DNA from: an uncultured archaeon
GTDB lineage: Archaea > Thermoplasmatota > Thermoplasmata > Thermoplasmatales > Thermoplasmataceae
Assembly (NCBI GenBank): GCA_000965745.1
Contig: CP009479.1
Coordinates: forward strand, 1,792,001 to 1,856,000
DNA length: 64,000 nt
Reading direction: 5' to 3'
How positions within the stretch are numbered: position 1 is the first letter of the stretch; every line of letters begins with the position of its first letter. Shown one piece after another: positions 10,107 to 17,080 of this stretch. Made by a program: the position numbers and the translations under genes. The notes beneath the pieces were generated by a model that ran no database searches, was not told where the DNA came from, and saw only the letters and a program-made list of their open reading frames with translations.

Positions 10107-10691
10107 TTAGCTAGAGATGTATGTCATGGATACTAGTATCTCACCATTCAGCGCAGCACCATCGTAGGGTGGCGTGAAGAATCCAATGTAAATCGTTGTG
10201 CTCCCGTCGACAGCGACTGAGTATGAGTCAGCCGATGTCAGAGAGAACGCCGTTACACCGGGGTTCACGACTGTGGGTATCTCGCCAGGGAGTCCCTGGT
10301 AATTGAAGTCGCTGAAGCTCAGTGGGGCCAGTGAGAAATACATGTATGATCCTGTAACGAACGGTGAACTCACGGTTGAGTTAAAGTAAAACATACCAGA
10401 CCCAAGAGTGGGTGCGAAGTTGATCTGCATCACGTTTATGATGAAGGTCGACTGGTTGCTTACTGTGCCAAACTGGAGATCGCCCATTGCGTTATGCGTT
10501 CCCGTGTATGGGTTCCATGAGATAGATCCGTCTGCTGTCTGGAAGTTGGATCCCGGTGCAAGCCAGAATGCGGCATTGTTATGGGTTCCATTTACTCCTA
10601 CCTGGCCTGTTATCATCACATCTGCTACGGCTACCGCTGGAAGGATGGCCGATACTGCTGCAATTAACAACAGGGTTAATCTTCTGTTCAT
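10107..10691 (-). CDS. Secreted beta-rich protein, paralogue 3 (candidate filament subunit)
   Basis: Signal peptide MNRRLTLLLIAAVSAILPAVAVA|DVMITGQ; no C-terminal TM; SD GGAGTGA. Confidence 0.85.
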   Translation of the reverse strand: MNRRLTLLLIAAVSAILPAVAVADVMITGQVGVNGTHNNAAFWLAPGSNFQTADGSISWNPYTGTHNAMGDLQFGTVSNQSTFIINVMQINFAPTLGSGMFYFNSTVSSPFVTGSYMYFSLAPLSFSDFNYQGLPGEIPTVVNPGVTAFSLTSADSYSVAVDGSTTIYIGFFTPPYDGAALNGEILVSMTYISS

Positions 10692-10712
10692 TTTATATCA
10701 CTCCTTGTTCCC

Positions 10713-11330
10713 TCATGATAGTGCCACGAATTGGCCCGTGAGCAGTGCGCTAGATCCTGCATAGTATCCAGGTGGCAGAACAAATCCAATGTAGAACGTC
10801 TGTGCCGGGCTGAAATTGGTTATCAGCAGGTGCGGGTTCTCACTGAGATCAACAGCTACTACGGTCGCAAGTGAAGATCCATCAACTGATATCGGTGTAC
10901 CGACATAGTGTGTTATGGCTGTCCCTATAAGAACTGCAAAGGTAATCGTGGAAGTCGAGATGACCATTTCAGTTCCGACCGGGAAGTTTGATGAAGACAC
11001 GTTAAGGTACAAACCCATGAACGACGATGGAGCTAAAGCATTACTAATAGTAATGTTCAGGTCAATCACGTTTATCATGGAGGTCTGCACGTAGTAACTT
11101 CCCTGGAGGTCCAGTGTTCCCATTTCTCCGCCAAGCACATCAGGCATCCATCCTATGGAGTTTGTTGCGTTGGCTGCGGCGTAGTTCGGTCCAGGCTGGA
11201 ATTCAAACGCAGTGTGATGATGTTTGTTCTCTAGTGAAATCTGTCCTGTTATCATTACGTCAGCCACAGCTACCGCTGGAAGCAGTGTTGCAATGGCTGC
11301 AACCAATAACAGTGTCAATTTTCTGTTCAT
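10713..11330 (-). CDS. Secreted beta-rich protein, paralogue 2 (candidate filament subunit)
   Basis: MNRKLTLLLVAAIATLLPAVAVA|DVMITGQ; shares QPGPNY, NV(I/L)DLN, F-x-LPPG-x-YAG with paralogue 1. Confidence 0.85.
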   Translation of the reverse strand: MNRKLTLLLVAAIATLLPAVAVADVMITGQISLENKHHHTAFEFQPGPNYAAANATNSIGWMPDVLGGEMGTLDLQGSYYVQTSMINVIDLNITISNALAPSSFMGLYLNVSSSNFPVGTEMVISTSTITFAVLIGTAITHYVGTPISVDGSSLATVVAVDLSENPHLLITNFSPAQTFYIGFVLPPGYYAGSSALLTGQFVALS

Positions 11331-11378
11331 TTTTTTTCACCTAACCAAAAATAATGGTGTTTTTTAGGACACCACTAT

Positions 11379-11954
11379 TTAATGCGCTATGAAAGTGCCA
11401 GTTATGGTACCAGTTGCTCCAGCATATGATCCAGGGGGCAGGTAGAAGCTCATGTAGTATGTTGTTGTTCCACCGGGGAATGGCCCGTTGAACTGGAAGC
11501 TTGCGCTGTTGATCGACTGTCCGCCGAGAAGACCTGGGAGTGAGTGCACATCAACCGTGTTGTTTGTAACCCAAACCATTGCTCCAGCGGGGAAGTTTCC
11601 AGTGAAGTTCACATACAGTGTTCCGGTAACTCCTGCGCCTATTGTCACGTTCAGGTCAAGAACATTTGCGAGTGCTGTTGTCTGGTTGTTTATGCCTTCA
11701 AGGTCGAATGATGCCATTGGTGCGAGTTGTCCGGGTTCTACTGATGCGGGCTGCATGGGGTTCCACGCAATGGCTCCGGCTGCGTAGGCTGCGGGGTAGT
11801 TAGGTCCTGGTTGGATCTCAAACACGGGTGTGTTCTGAGTACCAACAATGCTTACATTTCCTGTTATCATCACATCGGCTACAGCAACTGCGGGAAGAAT
11901 TGCTGCAACTGTTGCGAGTAACAACAGGGTCATCTTTCTATTCGTACTTTTCAC
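11379..11954 (-). CDS. Secreted beta-rich protein, paralogue 1 (candidate filament subunit)
   Basis: (T)NRKMTLLLLATVAAILPAVAVA|DVMITGN; start ambiguous (GTG 11954, ACG 11945 or ATG 11933). Confidence 0.85.
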   Translation of the reverse strand: MKSTNRKMTLLLLATVAAILPAVAVADVMITGNVSIVGTQNTPVFEIQPGPNYPAAYAAGAIAWNPMQPASVEPGQLAPMASFDLEGINNQTTALANVLDLNVTIGAGVTGTLYVNFTGNFPAGAMVWVTNNTVDVHSLPGLLGGQSINSASFQFNGPFPGGTTTYYMSFYLPPGSYAGATGTITGTFIAH

Positions 11955-12147
11955 CTCTCTATTTTTGGCTTAATGCCTGATTACATTATGAGCGGTGAAA
12001 TATATTTAATGGGTGGAATAAAAAATACATATAAGATCTTCTAATAGTTTGTAGGAATAAGAAATTCCTACATCTTATATACCTGTAAAGTTGAAATGCC
12101 GGCCCGGGCTCCCGCTGGATTGAAAATAAATGGAAAAAGCAACCAGT

Positions 12148-12942
12148 TCACTGAAAAGCTGTTGTGAAGAGATTGAAAAACAGAATGAATGCGGTAATCC
12201 CATAGGAGGCGAATGACGTGTATGCAGACGCTGAAAATGCAGGCTTCCTTTTCATGTAAGTTGCTACGGTGTAGACGGCCATGCACACTATTACTACGGC
12301 AGAATATACAATCGCCAGGTGTATGAGGCCGTTTATGCCGGTGATCCATGACATGGAGGGCGCATAGAAGGCAGCAAACGTTAAGGCTCCTGCTGAAACG
12401 AGCATTATTGCCATCAATCTCTTGGTTACGCTTATCCTGCTCACGACTGTCGTCAGTACTGCTATGCCGAGGACTGCAGCCAGAATAACGTATATGGAAT
12501 AGGTTACTGTCGACGGAAGCGAAGGCAGCAGCAGGTTTAGTTTCTTGACCGGGGAAAGCAGGAGAGATACGAGTATCCACAAATCGAGTGTGAGGAGTAT
12601 GAGCTGAGTGTCCGCGACAATTCCTTTACCCCCCGTATTGTGGACGAAATCTGAGAAAGGGGCTGTTGCTATGCTTGGTTCTGCATCTGGGACAGAATTC
12701 TCTGAATTCTCAGGCAGAGTACTTTCCATTAACCCATCCAGGGTGGACCGTTCCCCCTCTTGATGCTCAATCCTGTCTTTTTCCAGCCCATCACCATGGC
12801 CACCGGGAGGGGCAAGCAGGAATTCAAGTTTTTCCTCTTCAGGGCTGAGCTTTCTGAATGTTATGAAAAAATATATGGCAACTACTCCACCTATTACAAA
12901 CTGTGGAAGAAAACTGATCAATGCAGCAAGATCGAATTGCAT
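12148..12942 (-). CDS. Polytopic membrane protein with acidic, probably disordered loop after TM1
   Basis: One N-terminal TM, about 80-aa E/S/P-rich loop, then five to six TM segments. Confidence 0.75.
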   Translation of the reverse strand: MQFDLAALISFLPQFVIGGVVAIYFFITFRKLSPEEEKLEFLLAPPGGHGDGLEKDRIEHQEGERSTLDGLMESTLPENSENSVPDAEPSIATAPFSDFVHNTGGKGIVADTQLILLTLDLWILVSLLLSPVKKLNLLLPSLPSTVTYSIYVILAAVLGIAVLTTVVSRISVTKRLMAIMLVSAGALTFAAFYAPSMSWITGINGLIHLAIVYSAVVIVCMAVYTVATYMKRKPAFSASAYTSFASYGITAFILFFNLFTTAFQ

Positions 12943-13013
12943 AGCGAACGTTGATCATATCCCCAAGCCGGCATATAAACTATTCCAAAAAATTGAAAAA
13001 TATTTTGAAGCGG

Positions 13014-13808
13014 CTACTTCTTTTCCTTTTTGAACAACCTGTCATAAGGGAATACAGAAGCCGCGATGACAATCACAATAAGTATGCCCAGGTACAGGTA
13101 TGCGTTGTTTGGAACCTCGTTGTACTGGGTCCAGCTGCCACTGAATCTCAGTATATTAAGCTTTATCAGTCCGACCCATGGTATCTGACCGTAGGAGGTT
13201 CCCACGACCTTATCGGGCTGTACCGGGTTGAAGCCGAATACGTTCTGGTCTGAAGCACTGTATGCATTCTGGCTGGAATTGTAGAGGGGGCTGTGTGCAA
13301 GATTGTAATCGCCTACGGTTACGTAGCCGTCCTTGCCGACAAAGTGGTTCAGGTAGACGATGAGATTTCTGTGGGTAAAGCCAACATTATCGATGATCAC
13401 AGCGTTTGAAGTAATTTTGATCCAGCTTTGGCCATGATCACCTGCGACAATAGGAGTTGAACCGTTCCAGGACAGGTAAAACATGGCCCTGTGTATGATT
13501 ATCCTGCCATTCGGGTCATGGTAGAGTATAACGTTTCCAAACTCGCCATAGGTGCTGTAGCCTGAATCTCTTCCCTGAACATAAGTTACCACATCTCCGG
13601 TAGAGTTGTGGATATTCTTGGCGAAAACAATGTCCCCGGTGTTTATGGTCCCATAGGTCCAGTTCTGTGAATGTTCCATGCTCTCTGACTCCACAACATA
13701 CAGGGGGGGCCATACGTCAGAGTATGCAATGACAGAGGCAACGCTTGCCAGAACAACTACTGCAATTGCGATAGAGGCAATCTTTCTTGCTTTCACGGTA
13801 CATCGCAT
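13014..13808 (-). CDS. Signal peptidase I, S26 family, Ser-His (Sec11/SipW-type)
   Basis: VVESESMEH (catalytic Ser), GDIV, IIIHRA (catalytic His), VGDYN, IPWVG; N- and C-terminal TM helices. Confidence 0.9.
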   Translation of the reverse strand: MRCTVKARKIASIAIAVVVLASVASVIAYSDVWPPLYVVESESMEHSQNWTYGTINTGDIVFAKNIHNSTGDVVTYVQGRDSGYSTYGEFGNVILYHDPNGRIIIHRAMFYLSWNGSTPIVAGDHGQSWIKITSNAVIIDNVGFTHRNLIVYLNHFVGKDGYVTVGDYNLAHSPLYNSSQNAYSASDQNVFGFNPVQPDKVVGTSYGQIPWVGLIKLNILRFSGSWTQYNEVPNNAYLYLGILIVIVIAASVFPYDRLFKKEKK

Positions 13809-13932: not shown

Positions 13933-14556
13933 TTATTCAACACTGAGTGTGGACTGGCGGTGTTTGCTGTAGTTATACTCGACATTTTCAAAGGCATTGT
14001 TTATTTTGCGAGCAGTAGTGAACAGGTCCACAAGTATCAGAAGCAGCACTGCCGAGAATATTATGGTTATACCGAAAACAATACCATCCAGCTGGAATAT
14101 GATGCTGTCGGTGAATGCAAACTGGGTAGCAGTAACCAGGACGTATTCAGTTATGGCTATCATTACTCCGTAGATTATCATGAGTTTCCTGATCATTGAT
14201 GAGTCATGCTTGACCCTCTCGAGGTCTCTGCTTGGCTGCAATGCGTTTTTGAGGGACGACTCGAGCTTTTCCATATCCTTCATGGACATCATTGGCATAT
14301 CGTCCGGTTTGGTCTCTTCACCCATTTCCTCCGCAATCTCCCTTTCACTGAAGAACAACTGCGTATTGAGAGAGCTGTTCCTCAGGAACATTGAAAGCAT
14401 GTTCTTGGTGAATACCATGTTTGAGAGTTTTTCGATAGTCTTGACCTTGCTTTCAAGTCGTGAAATGTAGTCCTTGAATCCTTTTCCGGATATGTTGTAT
14501 ATCAAGAATGATACGACAAGTATCAGGGTAGGGATTATGTAAAGATACAGCAACAT
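13933..14556 (-). CDS. Membrane protein (3 TM) with helical/coiled-coil cytoplasmic region
   Basis: TM at the N-terminus, heptad-like YISRLESKVKTIEKL and MEKLESSLKNAL, two further TMs. Confidence 0.75.
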   Translation of the reverse strand: MLLYLYIIPTLILVVSFLIYNISGKGFKDYISRLESKVKTIEKLSNMVFTKNMLSMFLRNSSLNTQLFFSEREIAEEMGEETKPDDMPMMSMKDMEKLESSLKNALQPSRDLERVKHDSSMIRKLMIIYGVMIAITEYVLVTATQFAFTDSIIFQLDGIVFGITIIFSAVLLLILVDLFTTARKINNAFENVEYNYSKHRQSTLSVE

Positions 14557-14607
14557 TTTATTCAGCCCCCCTTCCAGGATATTTCATCTGATCATTATCC
14601 ATGAATA

Positions 14608-15036
14608 TCATGTACCTGGCCTCCTGATCTGGCTCTTGATGGCCCATCTCCTTTCCATTGCCTGCTTCATCTTCTCCTTGTCGCCACGGAACTCAGGAAC
14701 ATCGGGGGAAAGGGGGGCATTTTTCGCGTTTCCTCTCTTTACCTCCGATCTTATTTTCTCAATGGTTTTCTGCCTCTCTAGAATTTCCTCGAACTCCTCT
14801 TCTTCCATGCTGTTCTTCTGGCCGGCAATGTCTTCAACTTTCTTCTCGAGATAATTGACCGTTCTCTTAAGCATCTGAAATTCAAAATTGTCGTACAGCG
14901 CCCTTCTGATAACGCTCAGGGTGCTCTCATTCGGTCTCCTGAGAAGTTCTATCAGGACAAGGTCCTCCCTGAACAGCTCAACGGTCAGTGACTTCAGTTC
15001 CTGATTTTTGTTCTCCGAAACGCTTTCATTTGCCAA
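14608..15036 (-). CDS. Putative ribbon-helix-helix plus coiled-coil protein (ParR-like adaptor candidate)
   Basis: KSLTVELFREDLVLIELLRRPNESTLSVIRRAL fits a beta-alpha-alpha RHH pattern; followed by a coiled coil; directly downstream of the actin gene. Confidence 0.6.
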   Translation of the reverse strand: MANESVSENKNQELKSLTVELFREDLVLIELLRRPNESTLSVIRRALYDNFEFQMLKRTVNYLEKKVEDIAGQKNSMEEEEFEEILERQKTIEKIRSEVKRGNAKNAPLSPDVPEFRGDKEKMKQAMERRWAIKSQIRRPGT

Positions 15037-15101
15037 TTATCATCATCCACTCATAATATTAGATGGCGAAAAGAAAATAAAAAAGAAGGATTTTCCTCGC
15101 C

Positions 15102-16091
15102 TTATTGTCCTATTTCCCTCTTTGCTGCATCCTTGTAGCCAAGGGCGTTTGCAAAGGGAAGATCCTCTTCGGGAATTTTAATAAGTGCACCCGGAGCCAG
15201 TGATTCGAGCTTTTCGCCAATAAGGGCCGCTCCCCCGCCAACCGGTATGAGTGCAGTGACACGGTCAAGCTCACTTCTCAGGTTCGCCCTCATGTTATCC
15301 ACGATCCTGTCTGCAAGTTCCTGAAGGAATGGTGCAGCGAATTCCGGGCCACCCACTTCTCTCTGCTTGAACATGACGCTTTCCGATATCGACTCGCGTG
15401 CAACATCAGTCGGGACAACAAACCCGGTTTCCCTGGCGATGGCCTTTGCAATTTCTGAAACTGAGTCTCCGACTCCGGTTGTTATGCTGAACGACATCTG
15501 GAGAACAGGCTCCATGGTAGAAAGGTTCAATGTAAGAACATCAGTTGTTCTGGATCCCACATCAATTACTGTTGCAAGGCCCTTCTGCTGTTTCATTAGA
15601 CCTTTCTCTATCATATAGAGTGCAGCTCCTACTCCCTGTGGCCTCATGACAAGCCTGTCTATGGAAAGCTGCCTGACTTCCCCGGACAGTGAAGTGATCT
15701 TGATGCTCCTGCCTTCGAGAGCCTTTCTGGATTCGGCCAGTTCCTTGTCAAAGGTTCCCAGGGGAGTCCCGCTTCCAAGAACCACCTGGGTGGGAGATCC
15801 ATCAGCTCCTGCACCGCTTGCCCAAAGGGCTGCCCCGATAAGGGGGAGTGAAGCATTGTCTGCGAGTCTTCCATCGCCCAGAGGCTCCCTTGCATTTGGC
15901 CCATTCGCATCTTCTCCAAATGCAAAATGGTCTGTGCCGTCATCTACACTTAATATGGGAATATTCCCACCAATCCCCCACGATGTTCCATCATGCTTTG
16001 CCCACCGGGAAGGGAAGCTTATTCTCTCATCATTTACACTGATTACTTTTGTATCTCCATAACCAAGGTCTATACCAACAACTACTGACAA
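15102..16091 (-). CDS. ParM/StbA-family actin-like ATPase, close homologue of Thermoplasma acidophilum Ta0583
   Basis: GIDLGYGDTKV, RPQGVGAA, IDVGSRTTD, PVGGGA, FANALGY; recalled Ta0583 segments (FPSRWA, SWGIGG, GSGTPLGTFD) match. TTG at 16091 follows SD GGAGGTG. Confidence 0.92.
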   Translation of the reverse strand: MSVVVGIDLGYGDTKVISVNDERISFPSRWAKHDGTSWGIGGNIPILSVDDGTDHFAFGEDANGPNAREPLGDGRLADNASLPLIGAALWASGAGADGSPTQVVLGSGTPLGTFDKELAESRKALEGRSIKITSLSGEVRQLSIDRLVMRPQGVGAALYMIEKGLMKQQKGLATVIDVGSRTTDVLTLNLSTMEPVLQMSFSITTGVGDSVSEIAKAIARETGFVVPTDVARESISESVMFKQREVGGPEFAAPFLQELADRIVDNMRANLRSELDRVTALIPVGGGAALIGEKLESLAPGALIKIPEEDLPFANALGYKDAAKREIGQ

Positions 16092-16210
16092 CTCTTTACA
16101 CCTCCAACTGGAAATATCTTCCACAACTCTTCCATAACTAGTTGAGTCACTTATTGACTATCAGAGCCTTTTCGTATTAAAATCTTTACATCGACTGCAG
16201 GCGAAATTTT

Positions 16211-16220
16211 TGTCTAGACA
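16211..16220. promoter_or_regulatory. Palindrome TGTCTAGACA in the divergent promoter between the actin and pseudo-PP2C genes
   Basis: Perfect 10-bp palindrome; same half-sites as the TGTCWGACA sites at 23504, 23592 and 31434. Confidence 0.35.
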
Positions 16221-16348
16221 CGTTGAAAACTGCGGTTTCCCGTGAAATTTTTTTTCTTCATGAAGCCGTGTTTATCTGATTCCCACATTATTAGCCTTTC
16301 TATTTTGATATTTTTAATAGTTTTGAAGCACTACCACAGGGAGGATAA

Positions 16349-17080
16349 TTGGCTGGGACTGGTCCAAAAGGGGAATTTTTCATAACCGGAAGGTTGGGTT
16401 CCAAGGATGATCAATTCAGGGGATCTTTTTCGGGAGACGGTGAGGTTGGCAGGTACGCCTTTGCAACTGCCTATCCTGATCAGCCGTTATCCGGGAAATG
16501 GGCTGAATCACTGGTGAGGTCATTCATCGGTTTCGAATACCCTGTGGAAAATAGCATTGATTTGGTAAAGGAGTTCCTCTCAGAGTCCAGGAAGATGTGG
16601 CTTGAATTACTGGACTGGGGCAACCTTAAATGGTATATCAGAAACAAATCAATGGATGGTGTTTATTCTTCCTTCTCCGGACTTTCAGTTGCATCCAGGG
16701 ATGGGTCAATCGAATGCAGGGGGTTTTCTTCAGGCTTTGACAGTTTTTTTGCCCTGGGCCCGTCAGATAAGATTTCCCGGATTGATTCTGCTGGCTCAGC
16801 ACCCGATATTCACGAATTCTGGAGTGGCTATCCTTCTTCAGCTTCACCTGTGTACAGGTGGGATGTTCCCCAGAATGTCTTTTTTAAGTGGATTGTCCCC
16901 ATAGATTCACGTATGGTCCTTGTAACCCCCAACGTATCGAGGTGGATCCTGAAAAATCCCGAAGTTAACCTGGTCACTGTCGTTAATAACAGCGACCCGG
17001 GAGTCCTGGTAAGGAATAAGATGAAGTCGGGGGATATAGATAACGCCGAATCAGTGGTTCTCCTTCTTGAAAGGCGATAG
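16349..17080 (+). CDS. PP2C-fold pseudophosphatase, paralogue of 24457..25185
   Basis: Aligns end to end with the TerY-associated PP2C (WAESLVRSF/WANALVKAF, WGNLKWYIRNK/WDSLKLFVKNK, WSGY/WSGY), but the metal-binding Asp motifs are replaced. Confidence 0.75.
   Translation: MAGTGPKGEFFITGRLGSKDDQFRGSFSGDGEVGRYAFATAYPDQPLSGKWAESLVRSFIGFEYPVENSIDLVKEFLSESRKMWLELLDWGNLKWYIRNKSMDGVYSSFSGLSVASRDGSIECRGFSSGFDSFFALGPSDKISRIDSAGSAPDIHEFWSGYPSSASPVYRWDVPQNVFFKWIVPIDSRMVLVTPNVSRWILKNPEVNLVTVVNNSDPGVLVRNKMKSGDIDNAESVVLLLERR

Follow-up and report, generated by a model that had tools for sequence, protein, structure and literature searches.

An actin-like ATPase of the ParM/StbA family, together with the small protein encoded directly behind it, is the subject of this report. 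Both genes lie on the minus strand of a 64,000-nucleotide (nt) stretch of DNA, hereafter the window, which covers positions 1792001-1856000 of contig CP009479.1 in the complete 2.23-Mb genome of an uncultured archaeon of the Thermoplasmataceae; unless a contig is named, positions are those of the window. The actin (15102..16091; 329 amino acids (aa), read from TTG) is of the type of Ta0583 from Thermoplasma acidophilum, and its neighbor (14608..15036; 142 aa), here termed the partner, is probably derived from ParR. We conclude that the pair is real and conserved and that its two members very likely interact. The archaeal pair looks like a domesticated ParMR system, and the explanation that we favor, with confidence evenly balanced between acceptance and doubt, is that the partner acts as a dimeric regulator or adaptor of filament ends that operates without a centromere. 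An earlier examination of the same DNA (the original prediction) had named three open reading frames, the third encoding a 207-aa protein; all three were recovered on the minus strand at the same positions.

A conserved pair of genes in the Thermoplasmataceae

The actin matches Ta0583 (PDB 2fsj) over its full length (E 1.2e-130), and membership of that family is also indicated by Pfam PF21522 and PF17989, ALP_N and MreB-like_C both scoring above the curated cut-off; plasmid ParMs are the next matches (E 6e-7). Residues D8, K15, Q152, D177 and G285-G287 are invariant or nearly so among 79 homologues, and the nucleotide motifs expected of a ParM-family ATPase are intact. The most likely start is the TTG at 16091, preceded by GGAGGTG at 16099-16105, and close relatives are annotated with the same 329-aa length. 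Of 61 related genomes, 22 contain such an actin, and these belong to a single family; when 121 genomes of the order were searched with a family profile, there were 32 above the cut-off and none in several well-sampled genera. Within the family the distribution is patchy, and the gene is broken in some genomes of one genus (g3); in L022 and L178 it is reduced to a fragment or a frameshifted gene.

Behind the actin, at almost every locus, stands a gene of 102-237 aa, at a distance of -17 to +89 nt. A profile of 23 partners led to 23 places in 19 of the 61 genomes searched, each directly behind an actin, and never to a partner that stood alone or elsewhere in those genomes; since the profile was built from those same 23 sequences, what is informative is that no stray copies turned up. 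The adjacency proposed for the two genes is thus conserved throughout (23/23). In relatives the partner is annotated only as "hypothetical protein", a search of 1.84 billion representatives returned only 18 matches, and sequence searches of Pfam, NCBIfam and PDB yielded no significant family. Genomes of the Ferroplasma and Acidiplasma types (L019, L020, L090, L091, L094, L166, L169) have actins that lack a partner; these actins occupy two positions, on unstarred branches, in a quick tree with a midpoint root. The orphan and broken actins represent stepwise loss of the system.

At the locus in the window, GC content is genome-like and the flanks hold no mobile genes, which argues that the pair is a resident rather than a recent insertion. 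A second, divergent actin-partner pair (57% identity) occurs in the same genome at C1:480809-482182 (L024, L149) and was found in all four genomes of the source genus (g1), without the gene for the 207-aa transmembrane (TM) protein. A weak Cdc6-like gene is situated at 464267, about 16 kb from this second pair. Proximity of the window's own pair to a replication origin was considered and set aside, the skews being unclear and the best Cdc6 gene lying some 450 kb away. The source genome also encodes ParA-like and FtsZ-like genes.

Actin and partner can be regarded as one operon, because the gap between them measures only 7-8 nt in Thermoplasma and E-plasma (7 nt in one Thermoplasma genome). These short gaps also bear on a T tract (15069..15087, minus strand) that had been suggested to terminate transcription between the two genes: the tract is present, and a T-rich stretch follows the actin stop at most loci with long gaps, but its role in separating the genes does not hold up. 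As a possible partial terminator it may end some transcripts. A hairpin of the form CATCCT...AGGATG, with variable loop, pairs the ribosome site of the partner in L003, L005, L007-L011, L083 and L142, and is weak in the window itself.

Architecture of the partner and its predicted contact with actin

Models generated by AlphaFold (AF2) bear out the RHH (ribbon-helix-helix)-like start, coiled coil and C-terminal helix first proposed for the 142-aa protein. The chain is extended before residue 23, forms helices at residues 23-32 and 39-104, and continues through a loose linker into a helix at 120-136. The RHH domain (residues 14-52; 14881..14997, minus strand as for all parts of the partner) has a net charge of -1, and its outward ribbon residues S16, T18 and E20 are not conserved; the long helix or coiled coil (residues 53-104; 14725..14880) varies in length within the family; and the tail helix (residues 120-136; 14629..14679) carries the motif [LM]-K-x-x-[LM]-E-x-x-W and constitutes the predicted actin-binding site. 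When modelled alone, the N-terminal part reached a pLDDT of 92, and a fold search with this model placed TacA1 first (Z 5.4, rmsd (root-mean-square deviation) 2.8, 50 aligned residues), with MazE, TraM, ParD, PutA and NikR among the further top matches; these are monomer models, and a low Z is usual for 50 residues, with RHH proteins filling the top ranks. A model from the Atlas agrees with the RHH fold, and in these monomer models the gene next to the actin accordingly encodes an N-terminal RHH domain, as in ParMRC. When the full-length model served as query, the matches by fold were generic coiled coils, and Foldseek with the partner gave nothing under E 0.001. No ParR chain occurred among the top 50 fold rows for the N-terminal model, which does not speak against a relationship to ParR. 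Separately, the partners of L006, L063, L097 and L142 are 211-237 aa long and have a long proline- and glutamate-rich linker from the coiled coil to the tail helix. Across the 23 sequences E52, E128 and W131 are invariant, overall identity outside the genus being 13-27%. The spacer thus appears to be free in length and the two ends fixed.

The complex of actin with partner residues 105-142 scored 0.87, against 0.59 for the best of three controls; the score mark used is reached by 58 of 80 solved pairs and 2 of 110 mismatched ones. The runs share at least 87% of their contacts, with a partner pLDDT of at least 72, and the expectation that the two proteins would form a complex was sustained in the model, in which the tail helix occupies a groove of the actin. 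Partner residues 120-131 are placed on actin residues 150-162, 191-195 and 321-326, and the modelled contacts set W131, E128 and K124 of the tail against R150, L158 and D321. Residues 150-162 (15606..15644, minus strand) form the floor of this predicted groove and, with the other two segments, make up the model's interface list. We take Q152 to be the counterpart of Q137 in conventional actin, which by motif position would put the groove where subdomains IA and IIA meet. The same IA/IIA groove receives ParR and arcadin-2 as well as many regulators of actin (PMC5173319, PMC5016525), and the insertion of a C-terminal helix into the hydrophobic groove that characterizes ParMRC is reproduced here in the model.

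A further indication comes from D321 and R325 (15117..15131, minus strand), which are retained by each of the 42 partnered loci and differ in each of the five orphans; two more orphans and three more partnered loci fit the same pattern. This may be taken as independent but modest support for the interface. A supposed compensation between actin D321 and partner K124 in archaea, both positions being hydrophobic in bacteria, was discarded as evidence: it amounts to one contrast between clades, with exceptions in E-plasma and L112.

Bacterial relatives and probable origin of the pair

Beyond the archaea, the next homologues of the actin are 40-50% identical and derive mostly from Bacillota assemblies. 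Four bacterial loci that we inspected lie among conjugation and replication genes (VirD4, TrbL, TraG, MobL, FtsK, primase), and each actin is followed by a gene of 85-128 aa with an arginine-bearing N-terminal strand and a tail of the DPRL-x-x-L-[ED]-x-x-W type; in its general form, L-x-x-L-[ED]-x-x-[WF], the bacterial tail is similar to the archaeal one. A more distant ParMR pair is carried by a conjugative Sulfobacillus plasmid. The quick, midpoint-rooted tree unites the archaeal actins in a single clade (SH-aLRT (Shimodaira-Hasegawa-like approximate likelihood ratio test) support 99), which sits amid mobile-element relatives and has L144 as sister (94). This contig (Logan, SRR33468571), which holds the nearest non-archaeal relative (50%), has at least five 18-nt palindromic repeats TGGGCC-N6-GGCCCA at a periodicity of about 21 nt between parM and parR (L144:3205-3395), and SSB and TacA-like genes adjoin the pair. 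Judged from its sequence, L144 is an apparent complete ParMRC with a parC-like array, and transfer from a bacterial mobile element into archaea would be the simplest reading of these relationships.

No counterpart of the tandem-repeat parC that stands beside a ParMRC operon was found at the archaeal loci: a repeat screen found no array above shuffles around any of the 23 loci (0/23), and the same screen detects those of L144 (8 vs 3.0) and of the Sulfobacillus plasmid (6 vs 3.1). In every one of the 23 archaeal partners the RHH region carries a net negative charge, and its outward ribbon positions vary among them (STE, EIK, RVD, PTT, EVP); 7 of 11 other RHH-like proteins of the source genome are positive, and the bacterial partners are arginine-bearing. 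The original prediction of a ParMR-like module therefore survives as regards the chromosomal pair, its adjacency, the RHH domain and, in the model, binding by the tail; it fails as regards any parC array, and DNA binding is doubtful in view of the acidic and variable RHH face.

Possible function and alternative explanations

These observations may be reconciled as follows. A type II partition cassette (ParM and ParR) on a conjugative element of acidophilic Bacillota would have entered an ancestor within the Thermoplasmataceae and then become a resident chromosomal operon. Tail residues M123, K124, M127, E128 and W131 are predicted to bind the groove that separates subdomains IA and IIA of the actin, and the partner probably dimerizes through its RHH domain and coiled coil, so that it would carry two tails. 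Because the next subunit fills this groove in related filaments, the partner should bind only free filament ends or monomers; clustered, it would cap, stabilize or nucleate filaments, whereas free partner would sequester monomers. The T tract and, in several genera, the hairpin that would hide the Shine-Dalgarno (SD) sequence may keep the partner below the level of actin. Given the loss of the parC array and the acidity of its own face, the RHH domain probably serves mainly for dimerization or protein docking. The filament would then perform an accessory, non-centromeric cytoskeletal job, in shape or internal positioning of a wall-less cell, comparable to that of the repurposed CorMR system but with a different anchor. 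An extension of this scheme, which we offer tentatively, is that a plasmid ParMR independently became a host cytoskeleton after passage from Bacillota to archaea, its ParR keeping the tail and giving up DNA, with an acidic RHH face that links filaments to a cellular structure and thereby shapes or organizes the Thermoplasma cell.

Several points count against the view of the partner as an end regulator of domesticated filaments. We found no anchor protein. The profile comparison of archaeal with bacterial partners was not significant (E 0.086, tail only), so that the case for their homology is one of shared position, layout and motif. Upstream of the operon there is a conserved GCGAAAT element, and 3 of the 11 control RHH proteins are negative as well, net charge being a crude test. 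The interface as a whole is not significantly more changed in orphans than elsewhere (Fisher p 0.54), and loss of the partner amounts to only one or two events. Finally, the groove is sticky, one unrelated control having scored 0.59, and since the predicted site is the groove used by ParR and arcadin-2, the complex score may reflect likeness to the solved ParM:ParR complex (4A62).

The promoter element is central to the alternative that fares best, that the pair still acts on DNA: the RHH domain would bind GCGAAAT-type or dispersed sites, regulate the operon and link the chromosome or resident plasmids to the ends of filaments, in a ParMRC-like form of positioning. We consider this possible, although doubtful. 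Its ParMRC ancestry and retained RHH fold speak for such a role, and the chromosomal Cb-cParR still binds its cparC (PMC12270681). The element (GCGAAAT/ATTTCGC, 16201..16207) lies 18-20 nt upstream of a TATA-like box (16175..16182, minus strand) that is kept in the genus alignment and presumably belongs to the operon promoter. ATTTCGC is invariant in six of six promoters of the genus, a related CGAA element occurs in most genera, and RCGAAH, a pattern chosen after looking, is found in 21 of 23 partnered promoters against 9.5 expected. It is not a general promoter element, CGAA having no positional peak at 358 TATA-like sites of the source genome, and may be the best candidate regulatory site, possibly an operator. 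On the other hand, there are one or two sites rather than an array, no cluster of the motif was found near the locus, and the site stands upstream of the TATA box in either orientation. Moreover, one orphan promoter has the motif and two partnered promoters lack the strict pattern, and the ribbon residues, which ought to read a single conserved site, vary from genus to genus and are frequently acidic or hydrophobic. A proposed tie between the CGAA motif and presence of the partner was itself weakened by new loci.

Two palindromes had been noted in this region. Both are present; a role as parC or operator is not supported, as they vary across the genus. AGTCA-N5-TGACT (16145..16159), near the inferred transcription start and behind the TATA box, is perfect in two of six genus sequences, and TGTCTAGACA (16211..16220) is exact in G002, altered in G001 and lost in G003. 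Spaced palindromes number 6 against 3.2 in shuffles (P 0.11), which is not clearly above chance, and perfect 10-bp palindromes 2 against 0.26 (P 0.017). A conserved 5' RNA hairpin formed by AGTCA-N5-TGACT was rejected, its pairs being broken in two of six sequences.

A CorMR-like function, in which membrane attachment of the filaments and control of cell shape would both fall to the partner itself, seems improbable. The host is wall-less, which would suit such a role, as would the eroded RHH face, and there is precedent for a chromosomal ParR without DNA binding (10.1101/2025.06.27.661541). The N-terminal amphipathic helix, however, is missing: partner N-termini are polar, variable or absent, and the Thermoplasma partner begins directly with the ribbon strand, its chain finishing a single residue past the W.

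The third gene and neighboring genes

Downstream of the partner lies the gene for the 207-aa protein (13933..14556, minus strand), which had been read as a protein that spans the membrane three times (3-TM) and might tether the pair. Its three hydrophobic stretches were confirmed, the middle one being only moderate. The tether did not withstand comparison, since the gene is beside actin only in the source genus and there at one of two actin loci. A three-gene module, in which the 3-TM protein ties actin and partner to the membrane, is accordingly quite improbable, even though the gene is co-directional, follows after a 51-nt gap, is kept in all genomes of genus g1 and on two further contigs, and belongs to a family (2-3 paralogues per genome) confined to genomes that also have the actin pair. 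Its homologues are unlinked to actin in five other genera, went undetected with this query in four pair-bearing genera, and are absent from the second actin locus. Some follow a gene of 240 aa; others keep company with an S26 peptidase, a relative of the membrane protein at 12148-12942 of the window, or genes for secreted proteins. The 3-TM gene more plausibly opens a downstream block of membrane and fiber-like proteins, and is a neighbor from a separate Thermoplasmataceae family. The last alternative, an integrated-plasmid relic without host function, is highly improbable: patchy distribution and pseudogenes would fit it, but the actins retain 52-66% identity and intact ATPase motifs over 12 genera, with genome-like GC, an archaeal promoter and SD sequence, and no mobile genes nearby.

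In L132-L134 and L145-L148, 3-TM homologues usually stand near or behind an uncharacterized gene of about 230-260 aa, a separate conserved pair. The region at 10107-13808 (minus strand) encodes three paralogous proteins of 191-205 aa with near-identical signal-like N-termini ending in AVAVADVMITG. A membrane protein of 264 aa and an S26-like signal peptidase (TIGR02228; the E of 3e-4 falls short of the cut-off) are encoded there too, and the block may resemble a fiber block of the SipW/TasA type. On the other side of the operon, a divergent 243-aa gene (16349-17080, plus strand) has no match in Pfam or NCBIfam; a relative occupies the equivalent place in G002, G003 and L141, and none does so in G001 and L140.

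Relation to known systems

A crystal structure of Ta0583 has been available since 2006, and the literature searched holds neither a known partner nor a tested cellular role for it; that search, which left out two primary Ta0583 papers (Roeben 2006 and Hara 2007), also gave no paper on the partner family. Because the partner is conserved and its binding site predicted, the regulation of Ta0583 becomes directly testable with purified Thermoplasma proteins, and actins that lack a partner, as in Ferroplasma and Acidiplasma, provide natural controls. The link to mobile-element ParMRC of Bacillota suggests both a source for the system and what was lost from it, since one close relative has a parC-like array. 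Chromosomal ParMR pairs and their repurposing are already known in bacteria; as far as we have found, the archaeal partner is new to the literature.

Ta0583 (PDB 2fsj, 2fsk, 2fsn), reported to form helical filaments (PMC2651865), is orthologous to the window's actin at about 60% identity. In plasmid ParMRC (R1, pSK41; 4A62), where the C-terminal tail of ParR binds the hydrophobic groove of ParM (PMC5016525, PMC5173319), an actin is likewise followed by an RHH protein with a groove-binding tail, here modelled; the archaeal pair differs in being chromosomal, in lacking a tandem-repeat parC, and in its acidic, variable RHH face and long coiled coil. The cParMR systems of Desulfitobacterium and Clostridium botulinum are also resident chromosomal parM-parR pairs, in which Cb-cParR is a filament depolymerizer (PMC12270681); they are bacterial, Cb-cParR binds cparC, and the relation is distant (8x1i, E 7e-4). 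CorMR of Anabaena is, similarly, a domesticated ParMR whose RHH partner has retained the C-terminal actin-binding helix and lost DNA binding (10.1101/2025.06.27.661541), but its two proteins bear N-terminal features, an amphipathic helix in CorR and a disordered region in CorM, that the archaeal pair does not show. Crenactin, an archaeal actin of a different branch, and arcadin-2 resemble the present pair in mechanism: the C-terminal helix of a neighboring gene's product, with its tryptophan, fills the same groove (PMC5173319).
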